DNA of 64,000 nt from Candidatus Vecturithrix sp. (GTDB taxonomy: Bacteria > Moduliflexota > Moduliflexia > Moduliflexales > Moduliflexaceae), in NCBI GenBank assembly GCA_040772385.1, contig JAXGYF010000001.1, positions 5,048,545 to 5,112,544 of the forward strand, in the 5' to 3' direction. Of the stretch, positions 6,522 to 23,523 are shown piece by piece. The translations under genes were made by a program, and so were the position numbers. Each line of letters opens with the position of its first letter. Within the stretch, counting starts at the first letter, position 1. The notes beneath the pieces were generated by a model. That model did no database searches. It was not told where the DNA came from and saw only the letters and a program-made list of their open reading frames with translations.

Positions 6522-6554
6522 AATTATCTTCCCTCAATATTTTCCCCTCATCCC

Positions 6555-6800: not shown

Positions 6801-6816
6801 CCCGGCCCCTCCGAGA

Positions 6817-10232: not shown

Positions 10233-10314
10233 TAGAGGTTTGACTTTGCTCAGTGTGCGCGGTCTGTCGAGCGGAGTCGAGACCGGAGTAAGTTCAGATC
10301 TGAAAATCTCTTGC

Positions 10315-11019
10315 TCAAGCAGGTAATCTGGTCAACATATTGAGCACCAGAGTTGCTGAGTTTTGAGCGGCGGTGGTCATGCAGGCGTGGTACATGGCAG
10401 GGCTGGCTTCAGCCGTCACCAGATCGGAGATCGAGCGGATAATCACAAAGGGCGTTTGAAAGAGATAACAGGTTTGGGCAATCGCCGCGCCTTCCATTTC
10501 TACAGCCATGACTTCCGGGAATTTCTGGCGAAGCGCACTAATCTGCTCATGCTGGTGGATAAAGGAATCGCCGGAGATAATCTGTCCCTGATGAATGCTG
10601 ATCTGTGCCTGCTCAGGTAACGAGTCGCACGCCAGCGCGACGAAGGTTTTATCCGGAAAGTAGGCGGCCGGCATCCGCGGAATCTGACCGTATTCATATT
10701 GAAAGATGGTGGCGTCCGCATCGTGATGCCGGACTTCCTTTGAGACCACAATATCTCCAACGCGCAGCACTTCCGGCGGAAATCCGCCGGCCACGCCGGT
10801 ATTGATCACCGCGTCCGGGTGGAATTTATCAATGAGCAAGGTCGCGCCTACGGCCGCATTCACTTTGCCAATCCCGCACAACAGCAAGGCAACCTCGTGT
10901 CCGCCCAGCCGACCGGTGTGATAGTGAAGCGGGCCGTATGCGGTCACGTGCTCTGCTTCCAGTCGGTGTTTCAAGTGCTCTAATTCTTCCGCCATGGCGG
11001 CAATCATTCCGATTTTCAT
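10315..11019 (-). CDS. mtnN: 5'-methylthioadenosine / S-adenosylhomocysteine nucleosidase
   Basis: A 234-aa sequence of the PNP_UDP_1 family. Motifs MKIGMIAAMAEE, GIGKVNAA and AVEMEGAAIAQ are typical of MtnN/Pfs. Confidence 0.8.
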   Translation of the reverse strand: MKIGMIAAMAEELEHLKHRLEAEHVTAYGPLHYHTGRLGGHEVALLLCGIGKVNAAVGATLLIDKFHPDAVINTGVAGGFPPEVLRVGDIVVSKEVRHHDADATIFQYEYGQIPRMPAAYFPDKTFVALACDSLPEQAQISIHQGQIISGDSFIHQHEQISALRQKFPEVMAVEMEGAAIAQTCYLFQTPFVIIRSISDLVTAEASPAMYHACMTTAAQNSATLVLNMLTRLPA

Positions 11020-11035: not shown

Positions 11036-11211
11036 TGAAACTACAAGGATTTCTCATAAGCAAGGATGTGTTATCCCTGGTTATGTGAAATCCCTGTAGT
11101 TTCACCTGCCTGGTGAGCATTCCGCTCATGATAACTCCTTTGAAACTACAAGGATTCCTCATAAGCAAGGATTGTTATCCCTGGTTATGGGAAATCCCTG
11201 TAGTTTCACCC
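11036..11211. repeat. Two tandem copies of repeat family B stem-loop element (CTACAAGGATTTCTCATAAGCAAGGAT...CCCTGGTTATGnGAAATCCCTGTAGTTTCAC)
   Basis: Each 65-70-bp copy is internally palindromic. Further copies lie at 17040-17111 and, partially, at 37008-37045. Confidence 0.7.
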
Positions 11212-11448
11212 TGCCGGGTTAAGCATACGCTCATTGATACTGCTCAAGGAATCAACCTGTCATTCTGCCTAATCGTGTCAACAAGAATGTATGCGAAAAT
11301 TATGACGACGCGCCGTGAAAACTTTCTTGACATGCGATGGCTTTTGTTATTCATCATTCGCAGAAGATGACATCATTTGCTTGGCATGGTATCTGTTTGG
11401 CGATGCCGTGATTTATAATCCTTGTTTCCAAAAGAAGAGGAAAGCATC

Positions 11449-12096
11449 ATGAAAACTGTGATTGATATTGAAGATCTAAAGCGGATGGTCAATGGCGCGA
11501 TTGCCCAAATTCGAGCGCAGCATGCGTACCTGTCGTCCTTAGACGCTGCAATTGGCGACGGAGATCACGGTACGACTATTTTGCGCGGCATGAATAATCT
11601 GGCCAATGTGCTGGAAACCACCTCAGCCAGCGATTTGAAAAGCTTGCTCTCTGAACTTGGCTGGTCTTTTTTGGGCGTTGATGGCGGCGCTTCGGGACCC
11701 TTATTGGGCAGTTTCTTGTTGGGAATGTCAGAAGCGGTTGGTGAACAGATGACACTGGATTGTCAGGCTTTTGCCGCGATGTTCGCCGGCGGATTGGCCT
11801 CGATTCAGCAGCAAACCAGAGCCAAAGCGGGCGATAAAACCTTGCTCGACGCGCTTATTCCGGCTGTTGAAGCCCTGCGCAATGCCGCTGCCGATGGTGA
11901 TCGCATTCTTACAGCTTTGCAAAACGCCGTCAACGCCGCCGAAGCAGGCGCAATCGCCACCAAAGAGATGCAGGCGCGGATGGGCAGGGCTAAAAATCTG
12001 GGAGAACGTGCCATCGGACACCAGGACCCCGGAGCAACCTCAATAGTCTTAATTTTCAAGGGTTTTTTGGAAGGATTGTCACAACCACCACAATGA
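11449..12096 (+). CDS. dhaL: Dihydroxyacetone kinase, DhaL subunit (Dak2, ADP-binding)
   Basis: A Dak2-like sequence with DAAIGDGDHGTT and LGVDGGASGPL motifs. The start is placed at the ATG with a GAGGAAAG RBS; the ORF track gives a longer 11422 start. Confidence 0.8.
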   Translation: MKTVIDIEDLKRMVNGAIAQIRAQHAYLSSLDAAIGDGDHGTTILRGMNNLANVLETTSASDLKSLLSELGWSFLGVDGGASGPLLGSFLLGMSEAVGEQMTLDCQAFAAMFAGGLASIQQQTRAKAGDKTLLDALIPAVEALRNAAADGDRILTALQNAVNAAEAGAIATKEMQARMGRAKNLGERAIGHQDPGATSIVLIFKGFLEGLSQPPQ

Positions 12097-13532
12097 TCAT
12101 CAATTCAAGTTTACGAACAAAGATTTCTTTTGCGGTCGGATTGGTTATTTTTATTGTGCTGGGAACAAGCACCTTTGTTCATATTCAACAGTTAGAACGG
12201 GATTATCTGCAAGCGGTTGAATGGCGCGCTGAAGCTCTGTCGCAGGGGATTCTCAACCAGATTATGAACAACCAGGAATATGATCCGAAGTATTATATTC
12301 ATAATCCCGGCCTGTTAGGCGTGTTTTCGTTGCAATGTATGCAATTATATGAGCGCAATAGAGCGCAGAATGTCGCGCATATCAGTATTATTAATGCGGC
12401 CAACGTCATCGCGGCGCATAACGACAGAAACCTCTGGGACACCCCGATAGAGAATGCTCTGCTCCGTGAGAGTCTTGAGCGGCAGGAATTAGTGACTGTC
12501 CTCGCCGGAAATACCTATCATACCCTTGTGCCGATTGTGTGGAATCGAAATATTTATTTGGGAAGCATTGATATTGGGTTTCCCAAGCAGGTCGTTGACC
12601 GCAAAGCGCGGGAATTGATGATGAATTCGGCGATCTTATTCTGTATTTATTTGATTATGGCGGTTTTTGCCAGTTCGACCCTCATGCATATCATGTTGAG
12701 AAATATCAGTCGTATTCGCCAGGGGATCGAAACGCTGTTTCAGGATCCTACCTATACTCTGCCGCCGGTGAAAGGGGAATTCAATGTGATTGTCGAAAAG
12801 ATTAATGAATTAGTTACTAATGTAGCGGCAATGAAAAAATATGAAGACGAGCTGGAGAAACGGGAACGTATGGCGGTGCTAGGCGAGATGGCCCTGGGCG
12901 TGGCGCATGAGATTAAAAATCCTCTCACCTCAATCAAAGGTTTTACCCAGATGTTGCAGCGCACAGCCCCGGACAATGCCAGAACAGTCAAGTACCTGGA
13001 TTTAATCGACGCGGAACTCAATCGGGTCAATAAGCTGCTGAATGAGCTGCTTGTGTATGGAGGCCGGACGTCATTACAATTCACAGAGGCAGATCTGGAA
13101 CAGATTATTTCGGAATTCATTGATAAATTACACATAAACCATCCCCAAATCCGCGTGAAGAAACGTCTGCAAGGACAAAACTTTCGGGTACGGCTTGATA
13201 AGCACAAAATGATTCAGGTCTTTGATAATCTGCTCAATAACGCGGTTGAGGCCCTGAGCGAGAGAGAGAAGCCAGTGATTGGCATTTTTATGCAGGCGCG
13301 AGAAACAGGCGTGACAATTACTTTTATGGATAATGGCTGCGGCATTCAGACCGCCTATCTTGACAAGGTGCTGCATCCCTTTTTCACCACCAAACCAAAC
13401 GGCTATGGCTTCGGATTGGCGATTTCCTATAAAATCCTTGAACAACACGGCGGTAATTTGCAATTGTTTTCGCGTGAGGCGTGCTATACCAAAATTGTCC
13501 TCACGCTGCCAAAATGTCAGGCCCAAAAATGA
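12093..13532 (+). CDS. Sensor histidine kinase (two N-terminal TM segments, HisKA + HATPase_c)
   Basis: The H-box HEIKNPLTSIKGF is followed by N, G1 and G2 boxes (NLLNNAVEA, DNGCGI, GYGFGLAIS). It overlaps the dhaL stop by 4 nt. Confidence 0.8.
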   Translation: MIINSSLRTKISFAVGLVIFIVLGTSTFVHIQQLERDYLQAVEWRAEALSQGILNQIMNNQEYDPKYYIHNPGLLGVFSLQCMQLYERNRAQNVAHISIINAANVIAAHNDRNLWDTPIENALLRESLERQELVTVLAGNTYHTLVPIVWNRNIYLGSIDIGFPKQVVDRKARELMMNSAILFCIYLIMAVFASSTLMHIMLRNISRIRQGIETLFQDPTYTLPPVKGEFNVIVEKINELVTNVAAMKKYEDELEKRERMAVLGEMALGVAHEIKNPLTSIKGFTQMLQRTAPDNARTVKYLDLIDAELNRVNKLLNELLVYGGRTSLQFTEADLEQIISEFIDKLHINHPQIRVKKRLQGQNFRVRLDKHKMIQVFDNLLNNAVEALSEREKPVIGIFMQARETGVTITFMDNGCGIQTAYLDKVLHPFFTTKPNGYGFGLAISYKILEQHGGNLQLFSREACYTKIVLTLPKCQAQK

Positions 13533-13616
13533 TCCTACGTGAGTTGTGTCATGACACTTCGACTCCGCTCAGTGTCCGGAGCGGGGGTCGAGACATAAAT
13601 CATTCAGGATGTCTAT

Positions 13617-14957
13617 ATGAAATATAAACTGCTGATTACAGATGACGAACAGAGCGTCAGAATTTTCTTAAAAGATCTGTTTCTTGAGGAAGGATTTGAT
13701 GTCTGTGAAGCCAAAGATGGCAAAGAAACCCTTGAGGCCGTCAGAAATGACGCGCCGCATATTATTATTCTTGATCTTAAACTTCCGGATTTGAATGGCC
13801 TGGAGTTGATTTCACAGATCAAAAAAGAGCAGCCGCTTGCCGAAATCATCATTATTACAGCCCTGGGCACAGTCGAAAATGCGGTGAAAGCGATCAAATT
13901 CGGCGCGTATGATTTTATCACCAAGCCTTTTGATATCGAAACGATTCTGATCGTGGTCAAACGCGCGGTGGAATATATCACTGTCAGCCGCGAGAATATT
14001 GCGTTAAAGCAGTTACAAAAAAATAAAATCTATTTTGAGGAATTTATTGGGGAATCCGAAGAGATTCGCACTATTAAAAATCTGATTGTCAAACTCGCGC
14101 ACACGGACGTGCCTATTCTGATTACGGGGGAAACCGGGACAGGGAAAAATATTTTAGCCCAGCAGATTCATTTTACCTTATCGGCCCATGAAACGCCGCT
14201 GGCCTATATCAATTGCCCCGGGATTCCCGATTCGCTGTTTGAATCGGAATTTTTCGGACATGAAAAAGGGGCCTTTACCGGCGCAAATACCCAGAAAAAA
14301 GGACGTATTGAGGAAGCGCGCGACGGCACGTTGATTCTTGATGAAATCTCAGAGCTGCCCCTGAGCATTCAAGCCAAACTCTTAGATTTTCTACAAACCA
14401 GGAATTTTTACCGGGTCGGAAGTAATCACCAGATTTCGCTCAAAACCCGGGTTGTTGCTCTTTCGAATAAAAATCTTCAGGCCGAGATCGAACAAGGACG
14501 ATTTCGAAAAGACTTGTTGTATCGTTTGAATGTGATCCATCTGCACATCCCCCCGCTGCGGGAGAGAACTGAGGACATCATGCTGTTCGTCGAATATTTT
14601 TTGAAAACTTTCCGCAAACGGTATGCCAGGAACATCAGCGGAATTTCGGATTCCTGTCGACAGCTTCTGTTGAATTATCCCTGGCCGGGCAATGTGCGTG
14701 AATTGAAAAATGTGCTGGAACGCGCCTGCATTGTGTGCGAACATCCGATCATTGATGAACATGCCATCATTTTTGAAACCTCGCATCAGCAGTCAGCACC
14801 AAAAGATTTGAAGAACTTGATGAACGCTTATGAAAAACGTCTGCTGATTCAAGCCCTGGCCCGACATAATGGCAACCGGGTGAAAACCTCGGAAGAATTG
14901 CAGATTTCTCTGCGAAATTTGCACTATAAATTGAGTAAGTATCAGATTAGCGGCTAG
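13617..14957 (+). CDS. Sigma-54-dependent response regulator (REC + AAA+ sigma-54 activator + Fis-type HTH), NtrC family
   Basis: A REC domain with a DLKLPD phospho-acceptor region is followed by Walker A GETGTGKN and a GAFTGA-like segment. The C-terminal HTH region matches the NtrC-family layout. Confidence 0.85.
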   Translation: MKYKLLITDDEQSVRIFLKDLFLEEGFDVCEAKDGKETLEAVRNDAPHIIILDLKLPDLNGLELISQIKKEQPLAEIIIITALGTVENAVKAIKFGAYDFITKPFDIETILIVVKRAVEYITVSRENIALKQLQKNKIYFEEFIGESEEIRTIKNLIVKLAHTDVPILITGETGTGKNILAQQIHFTLSAHETPLAYINCPGIPDSLFESEFFGHEKGAFTGANTQKKGRIEEARDGTLILDEISELPLSIQAKLLDFLQTRNFYRVGSNHQISLKTRVVALSNKNLQAEIEQGRFRKDLLYRLNVIHLHIPPLRERTEDIMLFVEYFLKTFRKRYARNISGISDSCRQLLLNYPWPGNVRELKNVLERACIVCEHPIIDEHAIIFETSHQQSAPKDLKNLMNAYEKRLLIQALARHNGNRVKTSEELQISLRNLHYKLSKYQISG

Positions 14958-14990
14958 TGCAAGTTTTTGCACGTCATGGTGCAAGATTTT
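14947..14990 (+). promoter_or_regulatory. Candidate enhancer (UAS) for the sigma-54 regulator: TGCAAG / TTGCAC...GTGCAA half-site palindromes
   Basis: TGCAAGTTTTTGCACGTCATGGTGCAAG lies about 120 bp upstream of the -24/-12 element. This arm pattern is typical of NtrC-family activator sites. Confidence 0.4.
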
Positions 14991-15107
14991 TCGTGATGAT
15001 TTCCAGACAACGAATCTTTCGGAAAAAATCATGTTGCATCCATTTTTCTTGACAATAAGGGGAAATATTCCACATCAATAATCGTTATTTGTGCTACGGA
15101 GTTCCTG

Positions 15108-15123
15108 TTGGCATAATGTTTGC
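15108..15123 (+). promoter_or_regulatory. Sigma-54 (-24/-12) promoter TGGCATAATGTTTGCT upstream of the lactate permease gene
   Basis: GG and GC fall at the canonical spacing of TGGCAC-N5-TTGCW. The site is about 110 bp upstream of the ATG at 15232, and the adjacent gene encodes a sigma-54 activator. Confidence 0.55.
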
Positions 15124-15152
15124 TTTCTGTCATAACGTTGTGTCATAAAACA

Positions 15153-15187
15153 AGAAACCAGGTTTTTTTGAAAAAACCTGGTTTCTC
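15153..15187. repeat. REP-type-1 hairpin AAGAAACCAGGTTTTTTTGAAAAAACCTGGTTTCTC, here in a 5' leader
   Basis: Palindrome of the same family, located between the sigma-54 promoter and the lactate permease start. Confidence 0.55.
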
Positions 15188-15231
15188 CTTTGATTTGTCC
15201 TGCTCACAAGATAAACAAAAAATAAAGGAGG

Positions 15232-16932
15232 ATGGGTATGCCATTAGGAGTTCTTGCAATTATCGCTGCGATCCCCATTGTGTTAGTACTGGTATTGATG
15301 GTAGGGCTGCGTTGGCCTTCGACCAAAGCGATGCCGTTGGCGTGGGTCGTCACTGGGTTACTTGGCATGGTGATCTGGAAAATGTCACCTGGGTTTATTT
15401 TGGCTTCCACTTTAAGTGGGTTTGGGAGTGCAATCAATGTGTTAGTAATTGTTTTTGGCGCGGTGTTGATTTTATACACCTTGCGGGAAAGTGGTGCAAT
15501 GGATACCATCAGTTACGGGTTTCTGCATCTTTCTCGCGATCGCAGAGTTCAGGCGATTATCATTGCATTTATGTTCGGCGCGTTTATCGAAGGCGCGGCC
15601 GGGTTCGGTACTCCTGCGGCGTTGGCTGCGCCGCTGCTCCTCGGACTTGGTTTTCCGGCCATGGCTGCCGTCTGTCTGGCTCTGATCTGCAACTCTGTGC
15701 CTGTAACGTTCGGGGCGGTCGGCACGCCGATCTGGTTCGGCTTGACTCCTATAGAACCCTCGATTGAAGAGGCTATTGCTCAGGGAACGGCCAACGGCTT
15801 TACGACCTTTGACGGGTTTCTAAGAAACGTGTCTGTGTGGTCTGCGCTGATTCATGGGCTTGTTGCAATCGTTCTGCCGTTGTTTCTTGTCTGCTTTATG
15901 ACCCGTTTTTTTGGCAAGAATAAACTCTGGAGCGAAGGTCTGGGGGCCTGGCAATTCTCGCTATTTGCCTCAGTCTCATTTATTATTCCTTATTTTCTCA
16001 TGGCCGTGTTATTTGGTTCTGAATTTCCTTCCTTGATCGGCGGCTTGATCGGATTGGGAATCACCATGACCGGGGCGAAAAAGAAATGGTTTACGCCAAA
16101 GCGGGTCTGGGATTTTGCGGAACGATCGCAATGGGAAAAAGAGTGGGTCGGGGAAGTCGAACCCGGTTCGACAACCATCACGCCCAAAATGAGCCAGTTA
16201 GCCGCCTGGACGCCTTACATTTTGATTGCCATTCTCCTGGTACTCACCCGTGTGAATTTCCTGCCCTTCAAAGCATGGCTGAATACCTGGGGCAAAATCT
16301 CTTTCACTCATATTCTGGGGTATGAAACGGTGAATTTCAGTATGACTCCTCTCTATCTGCCAGGAACAATTCCGTTTACGCTGATCGCGATCATCACAAT
16401 TTTCCTGCATAAAATTCCGGCGGAGAAAGTTAAAATAGCCTGGACACAATCCTTTCAACGATTGAAAAGCCCAACGATTGCATTGTTATTTGCTGTCGCC
16501 ATGGTGGAAATTTTAAAACAATCAGGCGTCAATCCGGCCGGATATAAATCCATGCCATTGACGATGGCGTTGGCAGTGGCGGCCATTGTTGGCAAAACCT
16601 GGCCGTTCTTTGCCGCCTATGTCGGTTCTTTAGGGGCCTTTATTGCCGGCAGCAATACCGTCTCGAATCTGTTGTTTTCAAGTTTTCAATATGGACTGGC
16701 GTCCACCGTGGGCATCAGCCGCGAAATTATCGTGGCCTTACAAGCTGTGGGCGGCGCAATGGGTAATATGATCTGCGTGCACAATGTGGTGGCAGCGTTA
16801 GCAACGGTAGGTCTGGTCGGGATCGAAGGGCTTATCATTCGCCGTACCCTCGTTCCGATGATTTTATACGGCATTCTGGCCGGCACGCTTGGTTTGCTCT
16901 TCTCGTATGTCTTTTTTATTGGAATATTTTAA
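15232..16932 (+). CDS. L-lactate permease (LctP/LldP family)
   Basis: A 566-aa polytopic membrane protein whose N-terminal third (MGMPLGVLAIIAAIPIVLVL... through GFGTPAALAAPLLLGLGF) fits the lactate permease family. The internal ORF at 15120-15767 is an overlapping artefact. Confidence 0.8.
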   Translation: MGMPLGVLAIIAAIPIVLVLVLMVGLRWPSTKAMPLAWVVTGLLGMVIWKMSPGFILASTLSGFGSAINVLVIVFGAVLILYTLRESGAMDTISYGFLHLSRDRRVQAIIIAFMFGAFIEGAAGFGTPAALAAPLLLGLGFPAMAAVCLALICNSVPVTFGAVGTPIWFGLTPIEPSIEEAIAQGTANGFTTFDGFLRNVSVWSALIHGLVAIVLPLFLVCFMTRFFGKNKLWSEGLGAWQFSLFASVSFIIPYFLMAVLFGSEFPSLIGGLIGLGITMTGAKKKWFTPKRVWDFAERSQWEKEWVGEVEPGSTTITPKMSQLAAWTPYILIAILLVLTRVNFLPFKAWLNTWGKISFTHILGYETVNFSMTPLYLPGTIPFTLIAIITIFLHKIPAEKVKIAWTQSFQRLKSPTIALLFAVAMVEILKQSGVNPAGYKSMPLTMALAVAAIVGKTWPFFAAYVGSLGAFIAGSNTVSNLLFSSFQYGLASTVGISREIIVALQAVGGAMGNMICVHNVVAALATVGLVGIEGLIIRRTLVPMILYGILAGTLGLLFSYVFFIGIF

Positions 16933-16946
16933 TGTGATTTTTGGGT

Positions 16947-16978
16947 AAAAACCGAGTTTTTTCAAAAAACTCGGTTTT
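16947..16978. terminator. REP-type-1 hairpin AAAACCGAGTTTTTTCAAAAAACTCGGTTTT
   Basis: Palindrome directly after the lactate permease stop codon. Confidence 0.6.
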
Positions 16979-16989
16979 ATACGTATCAA

Positions 16990-17017
16990 TGACAATTTTA
17001 TTTTATGAGAATTGTCA
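16990..17017. promoter_or_regulatory. Operator-like palindrome TGACAATT-N12-AATTGTCA upstream of etfB
   Basis: Perfect 8-bp inverted arms in the etfB leader, adjacent to a family B repeat. Confidence 0.3.
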
Positions 17018-17039
17018 TGAGTTTACGATCGCCCGACAT

Positions 17040-17111
17040 CATGAAACTACAGGGATTTCACATAAGCACGGATAACACACTCTTGCTTATGAGTGTGATC
17101 CTTGTAGTTTC
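17040..17111. repeat. Repeat family B stem-loop element
   Basis: GAAACTACAGGGATTTCACATAAGCACGGATAACAC...CTTGTAGTTTCAC, ending just before the etfB start codon. Confidence 0.65.
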
Positions 17112-17126
17112 ACAGGAGAAAACTTT

Positions 17127-17930
17127 ATGAAAATAATTGTTCCGATTAAACAAGTTCCGGAAACCAGCAATGTGAAAATGGATGAAACCACCGGAACCAT
17201 GATTCGTGAAGGTGTTGAAAGTATTATCAACCCTCTCGATCTGTATGCAATTGAAATCGGCATCCAACTGCGCGAGGAATATGGCGGATCCCTCACGGCA
17301 ATCTCGATGGGGCCGCCAAGCTGCAAAAAAGCTTTAAAGGAAGCCATTGCCATGGGCTGCGACGACGCGATCCAGATCAGCCATAAAGCCTTTGCCGGCG
17401 CGGATACCTGGGCGACATCCTATGTGCTGTCGGAAACCATTAAACGCCAGATCGGGCAATTCGATCTAATCCTGTGCGGAGAACGGGCGACCGATGGCGA
17501 TACCGGACAGGTTGGCCCCGGAATTGCGTCATTCCTCGATTTGCCGCTCGCCACATATATCAGTAAAATTTATGCGATTGAAAACGGCAGTCATTTTCGC
17601 GTGAATCGCCTGATAGAAGGCGGCTACGAAGTCTTGTCGCTGCCTTTCCCGGCTCTGCTGACCGTCGTCAAAGAAATCAGCTTTCCGCGCCTGCCCACGC
17701 TGCGCGGCAAACAGAAAGCCAAAACCGTGGATATCCCTGTCATCACGCCGGACGTGATTGGGGCAAAACCGGAGTGTATCGGCCTAAATGGGTCGCCCAC
17801 GCAAGTCGTCAAGATTTTTCGCCCGCAAGTGTCCAGACAGGGAGAAAAATACGTGATCAAAGAAGAAGCTGATCTTGAAAACGCCGTCAATAAACTCGTG
17901 GATTTCTTGCAGCAAAAATTATTGATATAG
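17127..17930 (+). CDS. etfB: Electron transfer flavoprotein beta subunit (EtfB / LctB-like)
   Basis: MKIIVPIKQVPET... with a conserved AMP-binding region. It pairs with the etfA gene immediately downstream. Confidence 0.85.
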   Translation: MKIIVPIKQVPETSNVKMDETTGTMIREGVESIINPLDLYAIEIGIQLREEYGGSLTAISMGPPSCKKALKEAIAMGCDDAIQISHKAFAGADTWATSYVLSETIKRQIGQFDLILCGERATDGDTGQVGPGIASFLDLPLATYISKIYAIENGSHFRVNRLIEGGYEVLSLPFPALLTVVKEISFPRLPTLRGKQKAKTVDIPVITPDVIGAKPECIGLNGSPTQVVKIFRPQVSRQGEKYVIKEEADLENAVNKLVDFLQQKLLI

Positions 17931-18123
17931 TCTTTTGTCATGTCTTAAATGACGGGTTCGTACCGCGGACATCCTTGTCCGCAATGCCCGGACAGGGATG
18001 TCCGGGGTACATAACAACCCATCACTGTCAACTTGACAAAATAGCAGATACAATCAGAGCTTATGCAGCTTACTCAGATGAAACCATTCCGGTTACTCTG
18101 CGGACCGTTTATCTGGAAACGCT

Positions 18124-19146
18124 GTGAAACTTCTGGTTTTGAATATGGATTATCAAGGTGTATGGACATTATCAGAACAGAAAAACGGAATGATCCACTC
18201 TGTTTCTTACGAACTGTTGAACCGGGGGAAAGCCCTGGCGAAAAAGCTAGACGTTCCGTTAAGCACGGTGTTATTCGGGCATAATATCGCTGAAAGCGAA
18301 CTTCAGGAAGTGATCTATCGCGGCGCAGACCAGATCTACCTGGTCAATTATCCGATCTTCGCTCATTTTTTAGCTGAACCGTATCAAAAAGCATTGAAAT
18401 TTTTGATCAATCGATTTCGCCCTGAAATTATGATTGCGGCCGCGACAACCACCGGGCGCACGGTGATGCCCTATGTCGCCACGCAGATGTTCGCCGGATT
18501 AACGGCTGACTGCACGCTGCTGGATATTGAAGAAGGTACGCGCAACTTATTGCAGACCCGGCCCGCCATCGGCGGCAATATTTTAGCCACCATTAAAACG
18601 CCAAACGCGCGGCCACAAATGGCGACCGTGCGCCCCCGATCAATGAAACCGGCTGAACGCGACGTCTCGCGCACCGGTAAAATTATTCCGGTCGAACTCC
18701 CTGCCGACTGCCTGCAATCGCGTGTCACCTTTGAAGAATTTGTAGCAGACGCCTCGCTATGCACGCCGCTCCAGGATGCCGACATTATTGTGTCGGGAGG
18801 TCGCGGACTGGCCAAAGGCGAGAATTTTGCCCTCATTCGCAAACTCGCCAGGATGATCGGAGCGGAAATCGGCGCATCTCGTGACGCCGTTGATCGCGGA
18901 TGGATTGAATATCCGCATCAAATCGGTCTCAGCGGCAAAACCGTGTCGCCCAAATTGTATCTGACCTGCGGGATCTCCGGATCAATCCAGCATATTGCCG
19001 GAATGCAGACTTCTGAAACGATTGTCGCGATCAATAAAGATCCGGATGCCCAGATTTTCAAGCTTGCTGATTTTGGGATTGTCGGCGATTTATTCGAAGT
19101 TGTGCCTGCTCTTATTCGCAAACTTGAGGAAAGAACCGTATCATAA
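18124..19146 (+). CDS. etfA: Electron transfer flavoprotein alpha subunit (EtfA / LctC-like)
   Basis: C-terminal FAD-binding signature SGGRGLAKGENF...AEIGASRDAVDRGW...LYLTCGISGSIQHIAGM. The start could instead be the Met at 18145. Confidence 0.85.
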   Translation: MKLLVLNMDYQGVWTLSEQKNGMIHSVSYELLNRGKALAKKLDVPLSTVLFGHNIAESELQEVIYRGADQIYLVNYPIFAHFLAEPYQKALKFLINRFRPEIMIAAATTTGRTVMPYVATQMFAGLTADCTLLDIEEGTRNLLQTRPAIGGNILATIKTPNARPQMATVRPRSMKPAERDVSRTGKIIPVELPADCLQSRVTFEEFVADASLCTPLQDADIIVSGGRGLAKGENFALIRKLARMIGAEIGASRDAVDRGWIEYPHQIGLSGKTVSPKLYLTCGISGSIQHIAGMQTSETIVAINKDPDAQIFKLADFGIVGDLFEVVPALIRKLEERTVS

Positions 19147-19254
19147 AGTACGTAAAGGACTGGAAGTGCTTGAAGTGTAAGATTCCGTTTGACCTGCTTT
19201 CAAGTGTGGCGCGGCAATGCACTTCACTTACTTTCATTCACTTTTCACGCAGTT

Positions 19255-20682
19255 ATGACAAGAGCATATAACACAGTGACTCCGGCAATCGTCGCGGAAT
19301 TGAGGCGGATTGTCGGCGACCGCAATGTGCTGTTCGGCGATCCTGACCAATTAGAAGCGTATGGTCACGACGAAGTGGCTGATCCGCATTATGCCCATGC
19401 GCCTGAAGCGGTCGTAAAACCGGTGACGGCGGAAGAGATTTCCCGAATTATGCAATTAGCCAACCGGGAATTGATTCCGGTCACGCCGCGAGGGGCGGGC
19501 AGCGGACTCTCGTGCGGGGCTGTTCCGATCCATGGGGGCATTGTGCTCTCGGTGGAACGCATGAATAATGTGTTGGAGATCGATCCTGGTAATATGATGA
19601 TTACCGTCGAATCCGGGATTGTGACCAACCAAATCAATACCATCCTGGAAGAATATGGCCTGTTTTATGCCGGGTATCCGATGAGCCTGGAAACCTGCTT
19701 TATCGGTGGTAATGTCGCCGAAAATGCCGGCGGCGGAAAAGCCATTAAATACGGCGTCACCGATCGCTATGTGCATGGCCTGGAAGTCGTGCTGCCAACC
19801 GGCGAGATCATTGAATTAGGGGGAAAGCGGGTTAAGGATGTCACAGGCTATGATCTGCTGCACCTCATGGTGGGGTCTGAGGGCACGCTGGGAATTTTTA
19901 CCAAAGTCACACTGAAACTCCTGCCCCTTCCAAAAGCCAAAGTTGACTTGCTGGTGCTCTTCAAGACCGTCCAGGAGGCCATTGATATGGTGCCGGTTAT
20001 CATGACAGAAACCGGCATTATTCCGACCGCCATCGAATTTATGGATAAATTGTCTGCGCAAACCTCTTGCCAATATCTCAATGAACAATTTGCGTATCAA
20101 GAAGCCGGGGCCATGCTCTTAATCGAGCTGGATGGCACGAATGATGAGATTGTGGAACAGCAATACGAAGTTATTGGCGACACCTGCTTGAAGCGCGGGG
20201 CAATAGAGGTGTATGTGGCAGATAATTACACGACTCAGGAACGGGTTTGGAAAGTTCGCAGAAATATTGCCGAGGCCTTTAAAGTCTATAGCCCGGTGCA
20301 GAGCCTTGAAGATATTGTTGTGCCTTTCGCCCAAATCCCGGACTTAATCAGAGAAATTGATCTGCTCTCAAAGAAATATGGAGTGATTATACCAAGTTAC
20401 GGTCATGCCGGCGATGGCAACCTGCACTCGACCCCGATTAAGCCCCCTGAAATGACGATGGAACAATGGTACGAGATTTTGCCGAGCATTCTGGAAGACC
20501 TCTATATCAGTACCGCCAAATTGGGAGGGACAATCAGCGGCGAACACGGAATCGGGTCAAAACGCAAAGGGTTTATGAAGCTCGTCATGCAGCCGGAGGT
20601 GATTGATGTCATGAAACGGCTGAAGGTCACGTTTGATCCAAACAATGTCTTAAACCCGGGGAAAATTTTCCCTGAGAATTAA
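19255..20682 (+). CDS. FAD-dependent lactate dehydrogenase (GlcD / FAD-linked oxidase family; LctD-like partner of EtfAB)
   Basis: An FAD_binding_4 N-domain (RGAGSGLSCGAVP) precedes an FAD-linked oxidase C-domain. The gene lies downstream of etfBA and upstream of larA. The start is ambiguous between 19189 and 19255. Confidence 0.75.
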   Translation: MTRAYNTVTPAIVAELRRIVGDRNVLFGDPDQLEAYGHDEVADPHYAHAPEAVVKPVTAEEISRIMQLANRELIPVTPRGAGSGLSCGAVPIHGGIVLSVERMNNVLEIDPGNMMITVESGIVTNQINTILEEYGLFYAGYPMSLETCFIGGNVAENAGGGKAIKYGVTDRYVHGLEVVLPTGEIIELGGKRVKDVTGYDLLHLMVGSEGTLGIFTKVTLKLLPLPKAKVDLLVLFKTVQEAIDMVPVIMTETGIIPTAIEFMDKLSAQTSCQYLNEQFAYQEAGAMLLIELDGTNDEIVEQQYEVIGDTCLKRGAIEVYVADNYTTQERVWKVRRNIAEAFKVYSPVQSLEDIVVPFAQIPDLIREIDLLSKKYGVIIPSYGHAGDGNLHSTPIKPPEMTMEQWYEILPSILEDLYISTAKLGGTISGEHGIGSKRKGFMKLVMQPEVIDVMKRLKVTFDPNNVLNPGKIFPEN

Positions 20683-20724
20683 TTGAATCATCTGATGTAC
20701 TCCACCCCGGCCCCTCTCCAAAGG

Positions 20725-20885
20725 AGATCTGACAAGGGTAGGTATTTGATGCTGACGCCTCGTCCGCCCAGCCATTAATGGCCGGTCTCAAGGCCGAAGC
20801 AGGCTGAAGCCCGCTGCTGAATTCCGAAGGGCGCTTCAGCGTCCTTCGGCTTTGAGACTGGCGATTGATCGCCAGGACGGGTCTT
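20725..20885. repeat. Repeat family A intergenic element
   Basis: Near-identical to the 6560-6715 copy: CCTCGTCCGCCCAGCCATTAATGGCCGGTCTCAAGGCCGAAGCAGGCTGAAGCCCGCT...CTGGCGATTGATCGCCAGG. Confidence 0.7.
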
Positions 20886-20923
20886 TTGGGGAGGAGTTGG
20901 AGAGGGGATGCGTAATATGAATT

Positions 20924-22192
20924 ATGAAAGTAGATCTTAAATACGGCAAACAGGGATTGACTGTTGAATTTCCTGATGAACATGTGACCGTAATCGAACC
21001 GGAATTTGTCGCCGGTCTTGCGGATGAAAAATCCGCGTTTTTTGAGGCGTTGCGCCAGCCAATCGGCTCGAAGCCGCTCAAAGATCTGATTAAGCCGGAG
21101 GATACGATTGCAATCGTGTTCTCTGATTTGACGCGGCCGGTTCCGAATACACGGATTATTCCATGGTTATTGGAAGAATTAGCGTTTCATCCCAAAGAAC
21201 GCATCACGCTGATCAACGCTACCGGAATGCACCGGATTAATACGGAAGACGAACTGATCAGCATGCTGACGAAAGATGTGGTACAACAGTACCGGATTAT
21301 CAATCACGTTTCCACAGAGAAGGAAACGCTGACCTCTCTGGGGACAGATTCGTTTGGCGGCCCAATTTATGTCAATTCAGAGTATTATCGCGCCGATGTC
21401 AAAATTTTGACCGGCTTTATTGAACCGCACTTCTTTGCAGGCTTTTCAGGCGGGCCAAAAGCGGTGCTGCCGGGCGTGGCCGGCGCAGAAACCGTCATGT
21501 ACAACCATAACGCGCGCATGATCGGCGATCCAAAGGCCACGTGGGGCATTACCAAAGGAAATCCGCTCTGGGAAGAGATTCATGAAGTCGCTGTCATGAC
21601 CCACCCCACCTTTCTGATCAATGTCACTCTCAATAAAGATCGCGCGATCACCGGGATTTTTGCGGGCGACCTGGATCAAGCTCATGCGCAGGGCGTAGAA
21701 TTCGTCAGAAAAACTGCTATGCAGCCGGTCGAACACGCGTTTGATATTGTAGTCACCACCAATTCCGGTTATCCCTTAGATATTAATCTGTATCAAACCG
21801 TGAAAGGCATGTCTGCGGCCCGAAAAATCGTCAAAAAGGGCGGGAGCATTATCGCGGTGTCCGAATGTTGGGATGGGATTCCGGAACATGGCAACTATAA
21901 GAAAATTTTACATGAAGCGACCTCGCTTCAGAATATCCTGGATACAATTCATGCGCCCGGATACTCGCAATTCGATCAGTGGGAAGCGCAAATCCAGGCC
22001 ATGATTCAGCTCTGGGCCGATGTGTACCTCTATTCTTCGCTGTCTGAAGATGAAGTGAAAAAAACGCATATTACCCCAATTCCGAGCATTGAAGCGTGTG
22101 TTGCAGAATTGCAGCACAAATACGGTCCAAACGCCTTAATTGCCGTCCTGCCCGAAGGCCCGCAAACTATCCCGTATCTGCTTGAGAATTGA
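20924..22192 (+). CDS. larA: Nickel-pincer-dependent lactate racemase (LarA family, DUF2088)
   Basis: A 422-aa LarA-like sequence in the same orientation directly downstream of the EtfAB-LDH genes, matching the A. woodii lctF position. Confidence 0.8.
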   Translation: MKVDLKYGKQGLTVEFPDEHVTVIEPEFVAGLADEKSAFFEALRQPIGSKPLKDLIKPEDTIAIVFSDLTRPVPNTRIIPWLLEELAFHPKERITLINATGMHRINTEDELISMLTKDVVQQYRIINHVSTEKETLTSLGTDSFGGPIYVNSEYYRADVKILTGFIEPHFFAGFSGGPKAVLPGVAGAETVMYNHNARMIGDPKATWGITKGNPLWEEIHEVAVMTHPTFLINVTLNKDRAITGIFAGDLDQAHAQGVEFVRKTAMQPVEHAFDIVVTTNSGYPLDINLYQTVKGMSAARKIVKKGGSIIAVSECWDGIPEHGNYKKILHEATSLQNILDTIHAPGYSQFDQWEAQIQAMIQLWADVYLYSSLSEDEVKKTHITPIPSIEACVAELQHKYGPNALIAVLPEGPQTIPYLLEN

Positions 22193-22198
22193 GAATGA

Positions 22199-22236
22199 CG
22201 AAAAACCGGATTTCTTCAAGAAACCCGGTTTTTTTA
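22199..22236. terminator. REP-type-1 hairpin GAAAAACCGGATTTCTTCAAGAAACCCGGTTTTTTT
   Basis: Palindrome after the larA stop codon. Confidence 0.6.
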
Positions 22237-22368
22237 TAGGCTATTCTCTTATTCTTCACTTTTTCTGCTTGCCAAAAAATGCGCTATCGTATAGGGCGTT
22301 TTCACAACAACGCTTATGGCCTTGTCTGTCGTTCATCATTCTCAAAGAAGGCAGAAGGAGGGGAAAAC

Positions 22369-23523
22369 ATGAAACCTGTTGTCAGAGTATGCCTCAGTGT
22401 TTTGGTATGTTGGGGGTTAATCGTCAATACGGCCCATGCGGAAGATTCATCACGCAAATTGGGAGTGGACAAACGCCATGTGCTTGCCCAAGACATCCAA
22501 TTTTCGCCTTCAAATGAGGTGTTTCACTGGAAAATGGTGACACCCTGGTCAAGAGAGCTGCTTTTCTATGATATTGCCGCGCACTTCTGCGACAGCGTGC
22601 GTCTGGCTTCGGCCGGTCGTTTGGATATTCGGCCATTTTCAGCTGACGAGTTAGTCCCTGCCATGCAAACGTTCGATGCGGTCAGCCAGGGAATTGTCGA
22701 AGTCGGGCATGATTTTCCGGGCTACTGGAAGGAGAAAAATGAAGCCTTTGTAGCCTTTGCCTCTGTGCCTTTTGGGCTGGATGCCGAGGGGTATAACATC
22801 TGGCTCTATGAAAAAGGCGGACTTGAAATGCTGCAAGAGCTGTACGGCCGCTTCAATCTGTACGCCTTGCCCGGAGGGCAGGTCGGACAGGAAATGGGGC
22901 TGTTTTCCAACAAACGCGCCACGAAAATGGAAGATTTCGCCGGGATGCGCGTACGCACGGTTGGCTGGTATATGGAGATTCTTCACACCCTGGGCGCACT
23001 GGTCAGCCCGCTGCCCGGCGGCCAGGTCTATCTGGCCCTGGAACGCAACATGATTGACGCGGCAGAATTTTCGTCCCCGGCGATGAATTATGCCATGCGA
23101 TTTGACGCCGTGACAAAGTACAGCTTGCAGCCCGGCGTACACCAGCCGGGACTGCAGTGCAATCTCTTTTTCAACCAGGAGGCCTGGGACACGCTGCCGG
23201 AAGACCTGAAATGGATCGTAGATATTGCCGCGCGCGAAACCCAGCTTTGGAGCTACACCTGGGTCAATAACCTGAATGCCGAAGCCATTCGCAGATTTCA
23301 AGAACATATTGAAATCGTCATGATGGATCAAGCCACGCTGATTTCATTTCGAAAAATAACAAAACAGTACCTCGACGATTTGAAACAGCAAGATCCGGAT
23401 GTCAAGAAGGTGCTGGATTCTCAGGAAGCATTTCTCGAAGAGTATGCAGTGTGGCGCAACGCCAGAAGCGGCGCAGCCCCCTGGCCGTATAAAACCTATA
23501 TCTCCGGCAGAACCACAGAATAA
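22369..23523 (+). CDS. TRAP transporter substrate-binding protein (DctP family), orphan with no DctQM permease genes adjacent
   Basis: Signal peptide MKPVVRVCLSVLVCWGLIVNTAHA followed by a DctP-like fold. The ATG at 22369 has a GAAGGAGGGG RBS; the ORF track gives a longer 22279 start. Confidence 0.65.
   Translation: MKPVVRVCLSVLVCWGLIVNTAHAEDSSRKLGVDKRHVLAQDIQFSPSNEVFHWKMVTPWSRELLFYDIAAHFCDSVRLASAGRLDIRPFSADELVPAMQTFDAVSQGIVEVGHDFPGYWKEKNEAFVAFASVPFGLDAEGYNIWLYEKGGLEMLQELYGRFNLYALPGGQVGQEMGLFSNKRATKMEDFAGMRVRTVGWYMEILHTLGALVSPLPGGQVYLALERNMIDAAEFSSPAMNYAMRFDAVTKYSLQPGVHQPGLQCNLFFNQEAWDTLPEDLKWIVDIAARETQLWSYTWVNNLNAEAIRRFQEHIEIVMMDQATLISFRKITKQYLDDLKQQDPDVKKVLDSQEAFLEEYAVWRNARSGAAPWPYKTYISGRTTE

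Follow-up and report, generated by a model that had tools for sequence, protein, structure and literature searches.

A predicted lactate-catabolic gene cluster with a two-component system and a sigma-54-type promoter in Candidatus Vecturithrix sp.

Candidatus Vecturithrix is an uncultured wastewater "bulking" bacterium of the candidate phylum KSB3 (Moduliflexota). One region of its genome raises the question of whether it imports and oxidizes lactate, by which chemistry, and how far a two-component system found next to the lactate genes controls them. The region lies at positions 12093 to 22192 of the 64,000-nucleotide stretch of DNA that we analyzed (the window). We favor a cluster for lactate catabolism, in which LctP, LarA, and a confurcating Ldh-EtfAB complex are placed under the control of a kinase and a sigma-54 activator (probability of about 0.7).

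Gene content and the lactate enzymes

The original prediction had listed a sensor kinase, a sigma-54 regulator, a lactate permease, EtfB, EtfA, a GlcD-like lactate dehydrogenase, and LarA, and Pfam and NCBIfam matches confirmed this inventory:

12093 to 13532, plus strand: sensor histidine kinase, 479 aa (HisKA and HATPase_c, Pfam)
13617 to 14957, plus strand: sigma-54 enhancer-binding response regulator, AtoC family, 446 aa (Response_reg, Sigma54_activat, AAA_lid_14, HTH_8)
15238 to 16932, plus strand: LctP lactate permease, 564 aa (PF02652, E 3e-117; TIGR00795, 373 bits versus a cut-off of 341)
17127 to 17930, plus strand: EtfB, predicted bifurcating type, 267 aa (PDB matches and Gly124)
18145 to 19146, plus strand: EtfA, 333 aa from ATG 18145 (340 aa from GTG 18124, the longest ORF; ETF and ETF_alpha)
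19255 to 20682, plus strand: GlcD-type FAD-dependent lactate dehydrogenase, 475 aa (longest ORF from TTG 19189; FAD_binding_4 and FAD-oxidase_C)
20924 to 22192, plus strand: LarA nickel-pincer-dependent lactate racemase, 422 aa (Lar_N and LarA_C; NF033504, 528 bits versus a cut-off of 460)
22369 to 23523, plus strand: orphan TRAP-type solute-binding protein (DctP), 384 aa with a signal peptide (PF03480)

For lctP, the distance to the AAGGAGG ribosome-binding site favors ATG 15238 over ATG 15232, and the recorded protein has 564 aa. Models for malate racemase and other LarA homologues scored under their cut-offs on the LarA protein. The cluster had also been called complete, a label that the sequence does not bear out: larB, larC, and larE were absent among the ORFs scanned. 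The gene set for lactate import and oxidation is normal-looking, with enzymes of known kind, and is unusual only in its regulatory wiring and in the many hairpin repeats between genes. We found the etfB-etfA-ldh core in ∼45 of 80 metagenomic loci with dehydrogenases 62 to 77% identical to this one, sometimes joined by lctP and larA (loci L149, L162, L134, and L167). The kinase/sigma-54 activator pair was present in none of these 80 related dehydrogenase loci.

We then analyzed the sequences of the enzymes. The best PDB match of the dehydrogenase is 7qh2_C (Acetobacterium woodii LctD; E 1.3e-103), and the alignment keeps the equivalents of Arg328, His377, His384, Glu422, and His423, the roles of which in LctD have been described (PMC9232219). 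EtfB likewise has A. woodii LctB (7qh2_B) as its best match; each of its five top matches is a bifurcating ETF (E 1e-55 to 7e-60), ∼30 orders of magnitude above the canonical ETFs, which reach only 1e-18 to 1e-25. EtfB Gly124, within a TDGDTxQVGP motif, aligns with A. fermentans Gly123, an invariant position at which glycine discriminates bifurcating ETFs (PMC12630350). From its sequence, we predict that this Etf belongs to the two-FAD (bifurcating) type.

EtfA aligns to residues 68 to 392 of CarE and 70 to 393 of LctC, i.e., beyond their ferredoxin domains. It lacks such a domain, as do the 46 related EtfAs that we examined, none of which carries the CxxCxxC N-terminal extension. Deletion of the [4Fe-4S] domain abolishes confurcation by the A. 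woodii enzyme (PMC9232219), and the missing domain thus counts against confurcation here. The Etf might then be a canonical one-way carrier, as in the Ldh-ETF-Bcd system of Fusobacterium nucleatum, delivering the electrons of lactate to an acceptor whose gene lies elsewhere, without any confurcation assisted by ferredoxin; canonical ETFs do occur linked to Ldh (PMC12630350). We consider this quite unlikely, given the glycine, the motif, and the structural relatives of EtfB described above. Moreover, the cluster contains no bcd or other electron-acceptor gene, and both Bcd-EtfAB and CarCDE without its ferredoxin domain still bifurcate (PMC9232219).

In the confurcating scheme that we prefer, lactate would enter via LctP and be racemized by LarA to the form accepted by the dehydrogenase, which would turn it into pyruvate with NAD+ as the final acceptor. 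The uphill step would be paid for by co-oxidizing reduced ferredoxin at the EtfB flavin, as in the A. woodii Ldh-EtfAB complex. Because EtfA lacks a ferredoxin domain, ferredoxin would need to dock directly, in the style of Bcd-EtfAB.

The reaction is reversible in principle, and the complex could run reductively in vivo, from pyruvate and 2 NADH to lactate and reduced ferredoxin, for lactate fermentation and export. The KSB3 genome paper predicted lactate as a fermentation end product and not as a substrate (PMC4312070), which counts against a lactate-catabolic role. An inducible sensor of external signals, a permease gene in first position, a racemase, and a periplasmic binding protein of the pyruvate/lactate type nevertheless form a pattern of uptake and catabolism, so that we regard net lactate production as very unlikely. 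An equivalent gene set reportedly supports growth of A. woodii on lactate (Weghoff et al. 2015, cited in PMC9232219), which also speaks against the reductive direction.

Promoter, enhancer, and sensor

Upstream of lctP, we delineated four candidate regulatory elements:

14958 to 14971, unstranded: enhancer site 1, perfect dyad TGCAAgtttTTGCA (conservation; sole exact match)
14981 to 14994, unstranded: enhancer site 2, degenerate dyad TGCAAGATTTTTCG (kept in all four lineages)
15040 to 15071, unstranded: A/T-rich block CCATTTTTCTTGACAATAAGGGGAAATATTCC that separates the enhancer from the promoter (conserved almost identically in L089, L083, and the window; partly in L088)
15109 to 15124, plus strand: sigma-54 promoter TGGCATAATGTTTGCT (GG 15110-11, GC 15122-23; motif search and conservation)

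The promoter motif had been placed at 15108; the motif is there, one base further on. It lies about 103 nt before lctP, with a predicted start site at ∼15135. The strict pattern TGGCAY-N5-TTGCW has two matches in the 64 kb (0.21 expected), and among the sigma-54-type matches in the window, TGGCATAATGTTTGCT alone is intergenic. The second match, at 50366, falls within the gene for an IS1634 transposase on the opposite strand. Related loci each contain exactly one such site (at 1874 in L089, 11534 in L083, and 2406 in L088, TGGTATGCAGTTTGCT), in every case after the response regulator gene and before the first gene for a transporter, and a 40-nt block around the promoter is invariant in the window, L089, and L083.

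Enhancer site 1 (full form GTGCAAgtttTTGCAC at 14957 to 14972) begins with its core one base past the stop codon of the regulator gene, at about -170 relative to the predicted start of transcription. No other sequence in the window matches TGCAA-N4-TTGCA exactly, and the site is kept in L089, L083, and L088 although the sequence beyond it diverges. It also resembles a site in the AtoSC-like locus L086; that site adjoins genes for an AtoSC-like pair (60% identity), which has a sigma-54 promoter of its own. The two dyads are 23 bp apart, center to center, and span 115 to 151 nt upstream of the -24 element; palindromes ∼120 bp upstream, as originally predicted, are thus real, with a distance that fits the second site and not the first. 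Since both promoter and enhancer are conserved in independent related loci, we consider them to be beyond chance. The A/T-rich block between them may be a site for a bending protein.

The regulator has an intact D53, intact Walker A/B motifs, and an intact AAA+ domain, and GAFTGA is encoded at nt 14268. Its best NCBIfam model is AtoC (438 bits, under the cut-off of 714), and for the kinase core the nearest model is AtoS (NF008468, 237 bits, under the cut-off of 646). The kinase gene, the start of which overlaps the dhaL stop by 4 nt, encodes TM1 (∼aa 10 to 30), a single extracytoplasmic Cache/PDC-like domain (∼aa 31 to 178), TM2 (∼aa 180 to 202), HisKA, and HATPase_c. In four relatives, sCache_3_2 was detected below threshold (E 1e-5 to 6e-3). 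An AF2 model of the sensor domain (pLDDT 76 to 90 in the sheet) has a fold that matches the sensor domains of WalK, CitA, DcuS, DctB, and KinD, and the modeled domain is accordingly classed with carboxylate-sensing PDC domains.

Because the kinase stems from the AtoSC family, its ligand could be pyruvate or another short-chain acid instead of lactate. The closest homologues of the kinase, with an identity of ∼60%, adjoin and control genes of the ato type (CoA-transferase/thiolase) or PFOR/PTA genes, which counts against lactate, and the KinD sensor domain binds pyruvate. The best PDB matches of DctP are 4pet, 5cm6, 7ug8 (a "ketoacid-binding protein"), 2hzk (TakP), and 2zzv/7e9y (lactate-binding TTHA0766), so pyruvate and ketoacid binders are among them. 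We still judge a ligand other than lactate to be unlikely: the homologues have 598 to 599 aa and PAS domains versus 479 aa and a Cache-like domain here, a search with the sensor domain returned close relatives only, and the target genes in the cluster are all lactate-specific.

By its matches, DctP is assigned to the TakP/TTHA0766 subfamily, which binds pyruvate or lactate. The window encodes neither of the membrane subunits, DctQ and DctM. DctP is 72% identical to its counterpart in L088, which is encoded immediately after the orthologous regulators and their sigma-54 promoter and is itself followed by DctQ. A DctP of this type both here and under the orthologous promoter of L088 points to a 2-hydroxy/2-oxo monocarboxylate as signal or substrate. 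We propose that the membrane kinase would sense external lactate, or possibly pyruvate, and phosphorylate the activator, which would assemble on the two TGCAA-N4-TTGCA-type sites and open the sigma-54 promoter.

Hairpins and the reach of sigma-54 control

All genes of the cluster are set apart by repeat-filled spacers, and those after lctP measure 108 to 241 nt and are structured. The following elements, all unstranded, were identified:

15153 to 15186: terminator-like palindrome in the lctP 5' leader (stem of 15 to 16 bp; about +19 to +52)
16947 to 16978: terminator-like palindrome AAAAACCGAGTTTTTTCAAAAAACTCGGTTTT, 15 nt past the lctP stop (-23.6 kcal/mol, z = -6.8)
17043 to 17111: REP-like hairpin, member of the GAAACTACARGGAT...ATCCYTGTAGTTTC family, which stops 15 nt short of the etfB start (-34.4 kcal/mol, z = -6.0)
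17960 to 18010: G+C-rich hairpin in the etfB-etfA spacer (-57 kcal/mol, z = -7.1)
20700 to 20907: MITE-like element between ldh and larA, ∼210 nt long and bearing the terminal inverted repeats CCACCCCGGCCCCTCTCCAAAGG / CTTTTGGGGAGGAGTTGGAGAGGGG (-119 kcal/mol, z = -6.4)
22200 to 22235: terminator-like palindrome 8 nt past the larA stop, with a 7-U tail

The leader hairpin had been called a REP element. The hairpin exists, but the label is better replaced by that of a bidirectional terminator-like palindrome family, which occurs at seven places in the window (21 pattern matches with ≤3 mismatches versus 3.3 expected) and of which all copies other than the leader copy, among them the one after lctP, sit just past stop codons. 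Folding of the leader gives -29 kcal/mol (z = -3.4), and its palindrome is followed by an interrupted U-tract, UUUCUCCUUUGAUUUG. This palindrome is found in the window, L089, and L090; L083 lacks it at that place and has a similar hairpin upstream of its promoter instead. The GAAACTACARGGAT...ATCCYTGTAGTTTC family has seven arm matches in the window versus 0.33 expected. The etfB-etfA spacer hairpin is kept in L089, and L083, with a spacer of 70 nt, is without the corresponding ∼120 nt. L089 lacks the MITE-like element in its ldh-larA spacer; a sibling that shares the ends of this element lies instead between its enhancer and promoter.

The whole cluster had been placed under the sigma-54 system. 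On sequence grounds, this assignment stands for lctP, the first gene, only. Because the palindrome at 16947 to 16978 and the structured spacers intervene, we can only infer co-transcription and sigma-54 control for etfB-etfA-ldh-larA; the leader palindrome also counts against a single transcription unit. It is possible, but in our view doubtful, that the sigma-54 promoter serves lctP only and that the palindrome ends its transcript, with etfB-etfA-ldh-larA transcribed from a non-sigma-54 promoter of their own in the 194-nt spacer and the enzymes outside two-component control. The palindrome past lctP is stable and has a U-run, but this tail is short (UUUUAUAC) compared with the 7-U tail past larA, and the palindrome is absent from L083. 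Upstream of etfB, the window shares with L089 and L083 a conserved block, TTGTCATGAG..ACG.TC.CCCGACA..ATGAAA, that might act as a promoter of its own, yet it has no convincing -10 hexamer, and the sole sigma-70-like match in the spacer (17109 to 17137) crosses the etfB start codon at 17127. Control of a transporter has parallels, as the L088 copy of the regulator pair controls DctPQ and the effect of Desulfovibrio LurR is strongest on a permease gene (PMC6456213). Against a split unit, gene order and orientation are the same in all relatives, and the absence from L083 of both the post-lctP palindrome and a second sigma-54 site suggests a single ancestral operon. We therefore retain the single unit, in which the transcript would certainly cover lctP and probably continue through the weak terminator-like and REP-like hairpins into etfB-etfA-ldh-larA, to stop at the strong terminator past larA; the palindrome at 22200 to 22235 is likely the end of the transcription unit.

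Comparison with known systems

The cluster was said to mirror A. woodii lctBCDEF. The likeness holds for the five functions of lctABCDEF/Ldh-EtfAB (PDB 7QH2), i.e., EtfB, EtfA, GlcD-type FAD Ldh, permease, and racemase, with LctD and LctB as the best solved relatives, the Arg/His/His/Glu/His active site kept, and an EtfB of bifurcating type. It does not extend to gene order (the permease is fourth in A. woodii and first here), to regulation (a GntR-type LctA versus a kinase and sigma-54 activator), to the N-terminal [4Fe-4S] domain of EtfA, or to the repeat-filled spacers, and A. woodii is an acetogen whereas Ca. Vecturithrix is a KSB3/Moduliflexota filament and not a Firmicute.

Megasphaera elsdenii encodes a GlcD-type D-lactate dehydrogenase together with an ETF devoid of a ferredoxin domain. 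So does F. nucleatum, with a canonical ETF; its EtfB has Phe where bifurcating ETFs and the Vecturithrix EtfB have Gly, and its cluster contains bcd (PMC12630350), which is missing here. The TRAP binding proteins TakP and TTHA0766, which bind pyruvate, ketoacids, or lactate, are the best solved relatives of DctP, which differs from its L088 orthologue in having no membrane subunit gene nearby.

In Escherichia coli AtoSC, the output is also sigma-54 dependent, AtoC and AtoS are the best models for the activator and the kinase core, and the experimentally defined AtoC site core TGCAGAAATTTGCA (PMC3118216) resembles the core of enhancer site 1. The Vecturithrix proteins nevertheless score far under the equivalog cut-offs, the sensor domain is different, and AtoSC targets acetoacetate/short-chain fatty acid genes and not lactate genes. 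The functional precedent for sigma-54 two-component control of lactate genes is Desulfovibrio vulgaris LurSR (DVU3022/3023), which controls a lactate oxidation operon and lactate permeases (PMC6456213). The two systems share a sigma-54 activator as response regulator, a position directly upstream of lactate genes, multiple upstream sites, and a -24/-12 promoter, and LurSR has a strong effect on a permease gene. They are not orthologous, and they differ in their sites (GTCCGC..TTTTTCAGAC-like for LurR versus TGCAA-N4-TTGCA) and in their targets, which are Por, Dld-II/LldEFG, Pta, and Ack in Desulfovibrio and Ldh-EtfAB in Vecturithrix.

Gene content and the Ldh-EtfAB enzymes

Ca. Vecturithrix is a member of candidate phylum KSB3 (Modulibacteria/Moduliflexota), whose filaments cause bulking in anaerobic wastewater treatment (PMC4312070), and not a Firmicute acetogen; the G+C content of the window is 47.5%. 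The original prediction was a lactate cluster resembling lct of Acetobacterium woodii and placed under a sigma-54 two-component system. Pfam and NCBIfam domain and equivalog matches located all seven of its genes at the predicted coordinates. The finding is real and its first reading was largely correct: the cluster is an ordinary catabolic set whose regulator is not the standard one, in a host that is uncultured and of interest. Ribosome-site spacing, the gene calls of relatives, and the alignment to LctD point to the likely starts listed below for lctP, etfA, and ldh.

Features of the cluster and its downstream neighbor (window coordinates)
12093-13532, sensor histidine kinase (HisKA and HATPase_c domains)
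13617-14957, regulator (receiver, sigma-54-interaction, AAA-lid, and Fis-type HTH domains)
15109-15124, sigma-54 motif
15238, probable start of lctP
18145, probable start of etfA
19255, probable start of ldh
22369-23523, dctP, TRAP binding protein with a signal peptide, directly after the larA terminator

The GlcD/VAO-fold dehydrogenase aligns over its full length with A. woodii LctD (7qh2_C; E value, 1.3e-103). The cryo-EM structure of LctD implicated an arginine, two metal-binding histidines, and a Glu-His pair in lactate binding and catalysis (PMC9232219), and LctD residues Arg328, His377, His384, Glu422, and His423 are identical in the window protein at all five positions. The ldh gene is adjoined by etfB and etfA. 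A PDB search with EtfB returned LctB as the top solved relative and the remaining structurally known bifurcating ETFs as the next four, canonical ETFs matching about thirty orders of magnitude worse. A 2025 study reported that Gly123 (A. fermentans numbering) marks bifurcating Ldh-linked ETFs, the position being occupied by Phe in the canonical protein of F. nucleatum (PMC12630350); Gly124 of the window EtfB, inside TDGDTGQVGP, aligns with Gly123 of the EtfB structure 4kpu_B. EtfB therefore has both features that go with a second FAD, a small residue at the Gly123 position and a sequence of the bifurcating group.

EtfA has no N-terminal [4Fe-4S] ferredoxin domain (C(x)17CxxCxxC). The protein begins at a position corresponding to residue ~70 of LctC, its alignments to CarE and LctC start only past their N-terminal ferredoxin domains, and the longest etfA ORF extends the start by just 7 codons. 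We ruled out a remnant of the domain in the 194-nt gap between etfB and etfA: this gap holds an inserted G+C-rich hairpin (-57 kcal/mol), which is missing from L083, a related locus with 70 nt between the two genes. Metagenomes searched with the dehydrogenase as the query yielded 80 loci (62 to 77% identity), approximately 45 of which have the order etfB-etfA-ldh, a few adding lctP and/or larA; a CxxCxxC extension was found in none of the 46 related loci with a visible EtfA N terminus. From this gene order and the consistent absence of the extension, the window Ldh-EtfAB belongs to a widespread clade without the ferredoxin domain. The prediction of an A. woodii-type Ldh-EtfAB thus stands for the LctD residues, the gene adjacency, and the bifurcating EtfB, but not for EtfA. 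In A. woodii, deletion of the EtfA ferredoxin domain abolished confurcation (PMC9232219). Despite this result, confurcation by the window enzyme is likely, since Bcd-EtfAB never had such a domain and truncated CarCDE still bifurcates (PMC9232219).

LctP scored over the TIGR00795 cutoff. LarA reached 528 bits against the lactate racemase equivalog NF033504 (cutoff, 460), while its scores with the malate racemase models (376 and 332 bits) stayed under their cutoffs and other models of LarA homologues failed too. The subset of window ORFs that was scanned contained no larB, larC, or larE. Elsewhere in the window, region 4107-7710 encodes a glycyl-radical enzyme of the PFL2/glycerol-dehydratase family (804 aa; TIGR01774, 1026 bits) and, close to it, a radical-SAM activase; the gene at 32491-33912 encodes an acylating aldehyde dehydrogenase.

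The sigma-54 promoter and the regulator pair

The predicted sigma-54 motif is present upstream of lctP and in its orientation, one base away from the coordinate first given, with its -24 GG and -12 GC elements at the exact spacing. The strict consensus has two matches in the 64 kb (0.21 expected), and the second, at 50366, was rejected because it is antisense within the IS1634 transposase gene. A relaxed search (2 mismatches) gave 18 hits where 21.6 were expected, none of them in the cluster spacers, and we found no sigma-54 promoter or enhancer 5' of dctP or etfB. The RpoN box had no match in the six frames of the window. The enhancer palindromes are present: the dyad GTGCAAgtttTTGCAC begins one base past the regulator stop codon, and a second, degenerate putative site, TGCAAGATTTTTCG, lies 23 bp downstream of it. 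The dyads, both conserved, are centered on about -170 and -147 and are putative activator sites within 80 to 200 bp of the promoter.

We compared the locus with three independent versions of it: L089, from a Ca. Vecturithrix MAG (proteins 95 to 98% identical, same order through dctP); L083 (87 to 98% identical), which carries HK-RR-lctP-etfB-etfA; and L088, whose regulator is 80% identical. Every one of them has exactly one sigma-54-type site, situated in each case in the interval from the regulator gene to the first gene for a transporter. A 40-nt block around the promoter is invariant in the window, L089, and L083 while its flanks diverge, and past the regulator stop codon all four loci stay conserved for ~40 nt, a stretch that takes in both dyads, before conservation is lost. 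A conserved noncoding block, CCATTTTTCTTGACAATAAGGGGAAATATTCC, was also seen at 15040-15071, between enhancer and promoter. L083 carries a second activator gene, which speaks for an rpoN gene in the genome indirectly at most.

In the regulator, the GAFTGA motif, Asp53, and the Walker motifs are all intact. AtoC and AtoS were the best NCBIfam models for regulator and kinase, at 438 bits versus a cutoff of 714 and 237 bits versus a cutoff of 646, respectively, and the core of the dyad, TGCAA-N4-TTGCA, is similar to that of the experimentally defined AtoC site of E. coli, GCTATGCAGAAATTTGCACA (PMC3118216). Given this AtoC-like core and these top models below their cutoffs, the pair is an offshoot of the AtoSC family with a different sensor and not AtoSC itself. 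A similar site, CATGCAAAAAATTGCG, precedes a sigma-54 promoter of L086, a related locus in which a genuine ato-type operon lies beside a regulator pair of 60% identity. Activator homologues with 53 to 62% identity flank ato-like or PFOR/PTA genes; they are members of the family but not orthologues and were left out of the footprinting. Scanning a genome collection with back-translated AAA+ words of the activator produced no orthologue, only generic NtrC-type proteins with 36 to 42% identity.

The kinase sensor comprises ~150 extracytoplasmic residues between two TM helices. Pfam sCache_3_2 matched it below threshold in four relatives (21 bits versus 28.4). The AF2 model, built on a four-sequence alignment, shows the PDC topology, in which an antiparallel sheet of five strands comes after a long N-terminal helix, with a pLDDT of 76 to 90 over residues 80 to 170. 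A protein search with the sensor domain returned just two hits, so the alignment is shallow and the model is of moderate confidence. Foldseek matched it to the sensor domains of WalK, CitA, DcuS, DctB, and the pyruvate-binding KinD (E values of 3e-5 to 5e-4). With this fold and these matches, the most economical reading of the model is that the kinase would directly sense a small carboxylate, whose identity we infer from the target genes. The kinase start overlaps the stop of dhaL (~11449-12096) by 4 nt, so the two may be cotranslated; the upstream neighbor of the L083 kinase is different (URO-D). In the window, dhaL is separated from dhaK (9166-10167) by an MTA/SAH nucleosidase gene in the opposite orientation (10315-11019) and two REP hairpins.

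The neighboring DctP bears on the ligand as well. Its best solved relatives (4PET, 5CM6, 7UG8, TakP, and TTHA0766) bind pyruvate, ketoacids, or lactate. The window has no DctQ or DctM, leaving DctP an orphan, and in L088 a 72% identical DctP is the first gene past the orthologous regulator pair and sigma-54 promoter, with DctQ next. In two lineages, and with two transporter types, the regulator pair is therefore linked to the import of 2-hydroxy/2-oxo monocarboxylates, which strengthens the lactate/pyruvate assignment. This arrangement suggests that the lct block occupies the place where a TRAP operon once began; the orphan DctP may be a remnant or a cosensor.

Intergenic repeats and the extent of sigma-54 control

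The lctP leader contains a hairpin (15153-15186) that had been read as a family-1 REP element. It belongs to a family of near-identical palindromes, in AAAAACCGAGTTTTTTCAAAAAACTCGGTTTTT and AAAAACCGGGTTTCTTnAAGAAACCCGGTTTTTT forms, with seven places in the window.

Places of the palindrome family (window coordinates)
1355-1389
2574-2608
10200-10234
15153-15186, leader of lctP
16947-16978, 15 nt past the lctP stop codon
22200-22235, 8 nt past the larA stop codon, with a 7-U tail
30392-30424

All seven are intergenic, and six directly follow stop codons in an A-tract/stem/T-tract form, three of these six being nearly identical. The REP reading holds insofar as this is a short repeated intergenic palindrome, but a bidirectional intrinsic terminator also fits, and the palindromes look like such terminators spread as a repeat family. 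At gathering thresholds, Rfam had no hit anywhere in the window; the leader hairpin thus does not belong to the known riboswitches or leaders.

A second REP-like family is conserved at its ends (GAAACTACARGGAT...ATCCYTGTAGTTTC) but varies in between, with 7 arm matches in the window versus 0.33 expected.

Copies of the second REP-like family
11037-11103
11142-11207
17043-17111, 5' of etfB
37011-37024
~13330 in L083

The two tandem copies overlap an 85-aa ORF (11113-11370) that is probably spurious. A MITE-like element of ~210 nt (20700-20907; -119 kcal/mol) precedes larA. L089 has none there; a sibling (L089 1530-1712) with the same ~25-nt terminal inverted repeats, CCACCCCGRCCCCTCYCCAAAGG, and a different interior sits between enhancer and promoter, setting the enhancer ~430 nt from the sigma-54 promoter. 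Different insertion sites in two strains whose proteins are 95 to 98% identical imply recent mobility. L083 is without the leader hairpin, the palindrome after lctP, and the hairpin between etfB and etfA, and has a similar palindrome upstream of its promoter. The positions of the repeats in the cluster spacers are thus not conserved among the window, L083, and L089. Breaks in short-read contigs of the same strain in the lctP-etfB spacer (L001 and L172; Logan assemblies, SRR23426541), and in the NCBI MAG GCA_034005185.1 between the kinase and regulator genes, are consistent with repeats confounding assembly. The window is also rich in mobile elements in two other regions, 36022-41291 and 49722-54446.

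Genes of the mobile-element-rich regions
36022-37008, tyrosine recombinase
37270-38322, tyrosine recombinase
39237-40133, tyrosine recombinase
40155-41291, IS91-type Y2 transposase
49722-51050, IS1634 transposase
51142-52341, NACHT-type protein with a weak antiphage (EruA-like) match
52377-53282, ORF preceding an IS91-type gene
53310-54446, IS91-type Y2 transposase

Sigma-54 control had been proposed for the whole cluster. The promoter before lctP supports it, but its reach past hairpin-filled spacers is the weakest part of the claim. No second sigma-54 site occurs in any cluster spacer of the window or the related loci, and no convincing sigma-70 promoter precedes etfB. A conserved block 5' of etfB (16990-17040; TTGTCATGAG..ACG.TC.CCCGACA..ATGAAA), in the window and L089 part of a dyad TGACAATT-N12-AATTGTCA, leaves a separate etfB promoter possible. 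In our reading of these sequences, the ancestral unit was a single sigma-54 operon, lctP-etfB-etfA-ldh-larA, and in this strain transcription probably reads through hairpins acquired later. We give little credence to a broader scenario in which the palindromes are mobile cassettes and not fixed operon punctuation, one having landed in the sigma-54 leader and one behind lctP. Were they to terminate, sigma-54 activation would need read-through, and their mobility would repartition the genes that respond to the lactate sensor; the TakP-like binding protein might be a periplasmic cosensor of the Cache kinase instead of a transporter part.

Comparison with known lactate systems

To our knowledge, all described lct clusters use a GntR-type LctA, whereas the window has a kinase and a sigma-54 activator instead. 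No gene for a GntR/FCD regulator lies within 12093-23523, and a DeoR gene (23715-24542), on the opposite strand, stands beside a sugar ABC system. The metagenomic locus L162 has a GntR/FCD gene beside its lct-type cluster. Enzymatically, the window cluster belongs to the Ldh-EtfAB kind, as a variant without the ferredoxin domain. Ldh-linked EtfA proteins thus include a large environmental clade devoid of a domain that is essential in the sole structurally characterized enzyme, and whether and how such an Ldh-EtfAB confurcates is a testable biochemical question.

The founding KSB3 genome paper presented lactate solely as an end product, and neither it nor its supplements mention sigma-54 (PMC4312070). 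The cluster gives Ca. Vecturithrix a plausible route of lactate consumption, a point relevant to the substrates behind bulking and to efforts at cultivation. A comparison of sigma-54 regulons among Clostridiales placed etfAB only in butyrate operons and did not mention lactate.

LurSR of Desulfovibrio vulgaris, the precedent in function, was reported as the first activator of lactate consumption to be a two-component system and the first to depend on sigma-54 (PMC6456213). LurS is a hybrid kinase with three PAS domains and a receiver, whereas the window kinase (479 aa) has a Cache-like domain and neither PAS nor receiver; LurR recognizes a 16-bp site of the GTCCGC..CAGAC type (PMC6456213), different in sequence from the window site; and the target enzymes differ. 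As architecture, site, and targets all differ, the window pair represents an independent recruitment. Neither a kinase nor a sigma-54 activator occurs in the retrieved flanks of any of the 80 related environmental loci; these flanks cover at least 2.5 kb upstream of etfB in about 25 of the loci. The window pair is thus, after Desulfovibrio LurSR, a second independently recruited two-component/sigma-54 switch of lactate catabolism and the first seen attached to an Ldh-EtfAB cluster.
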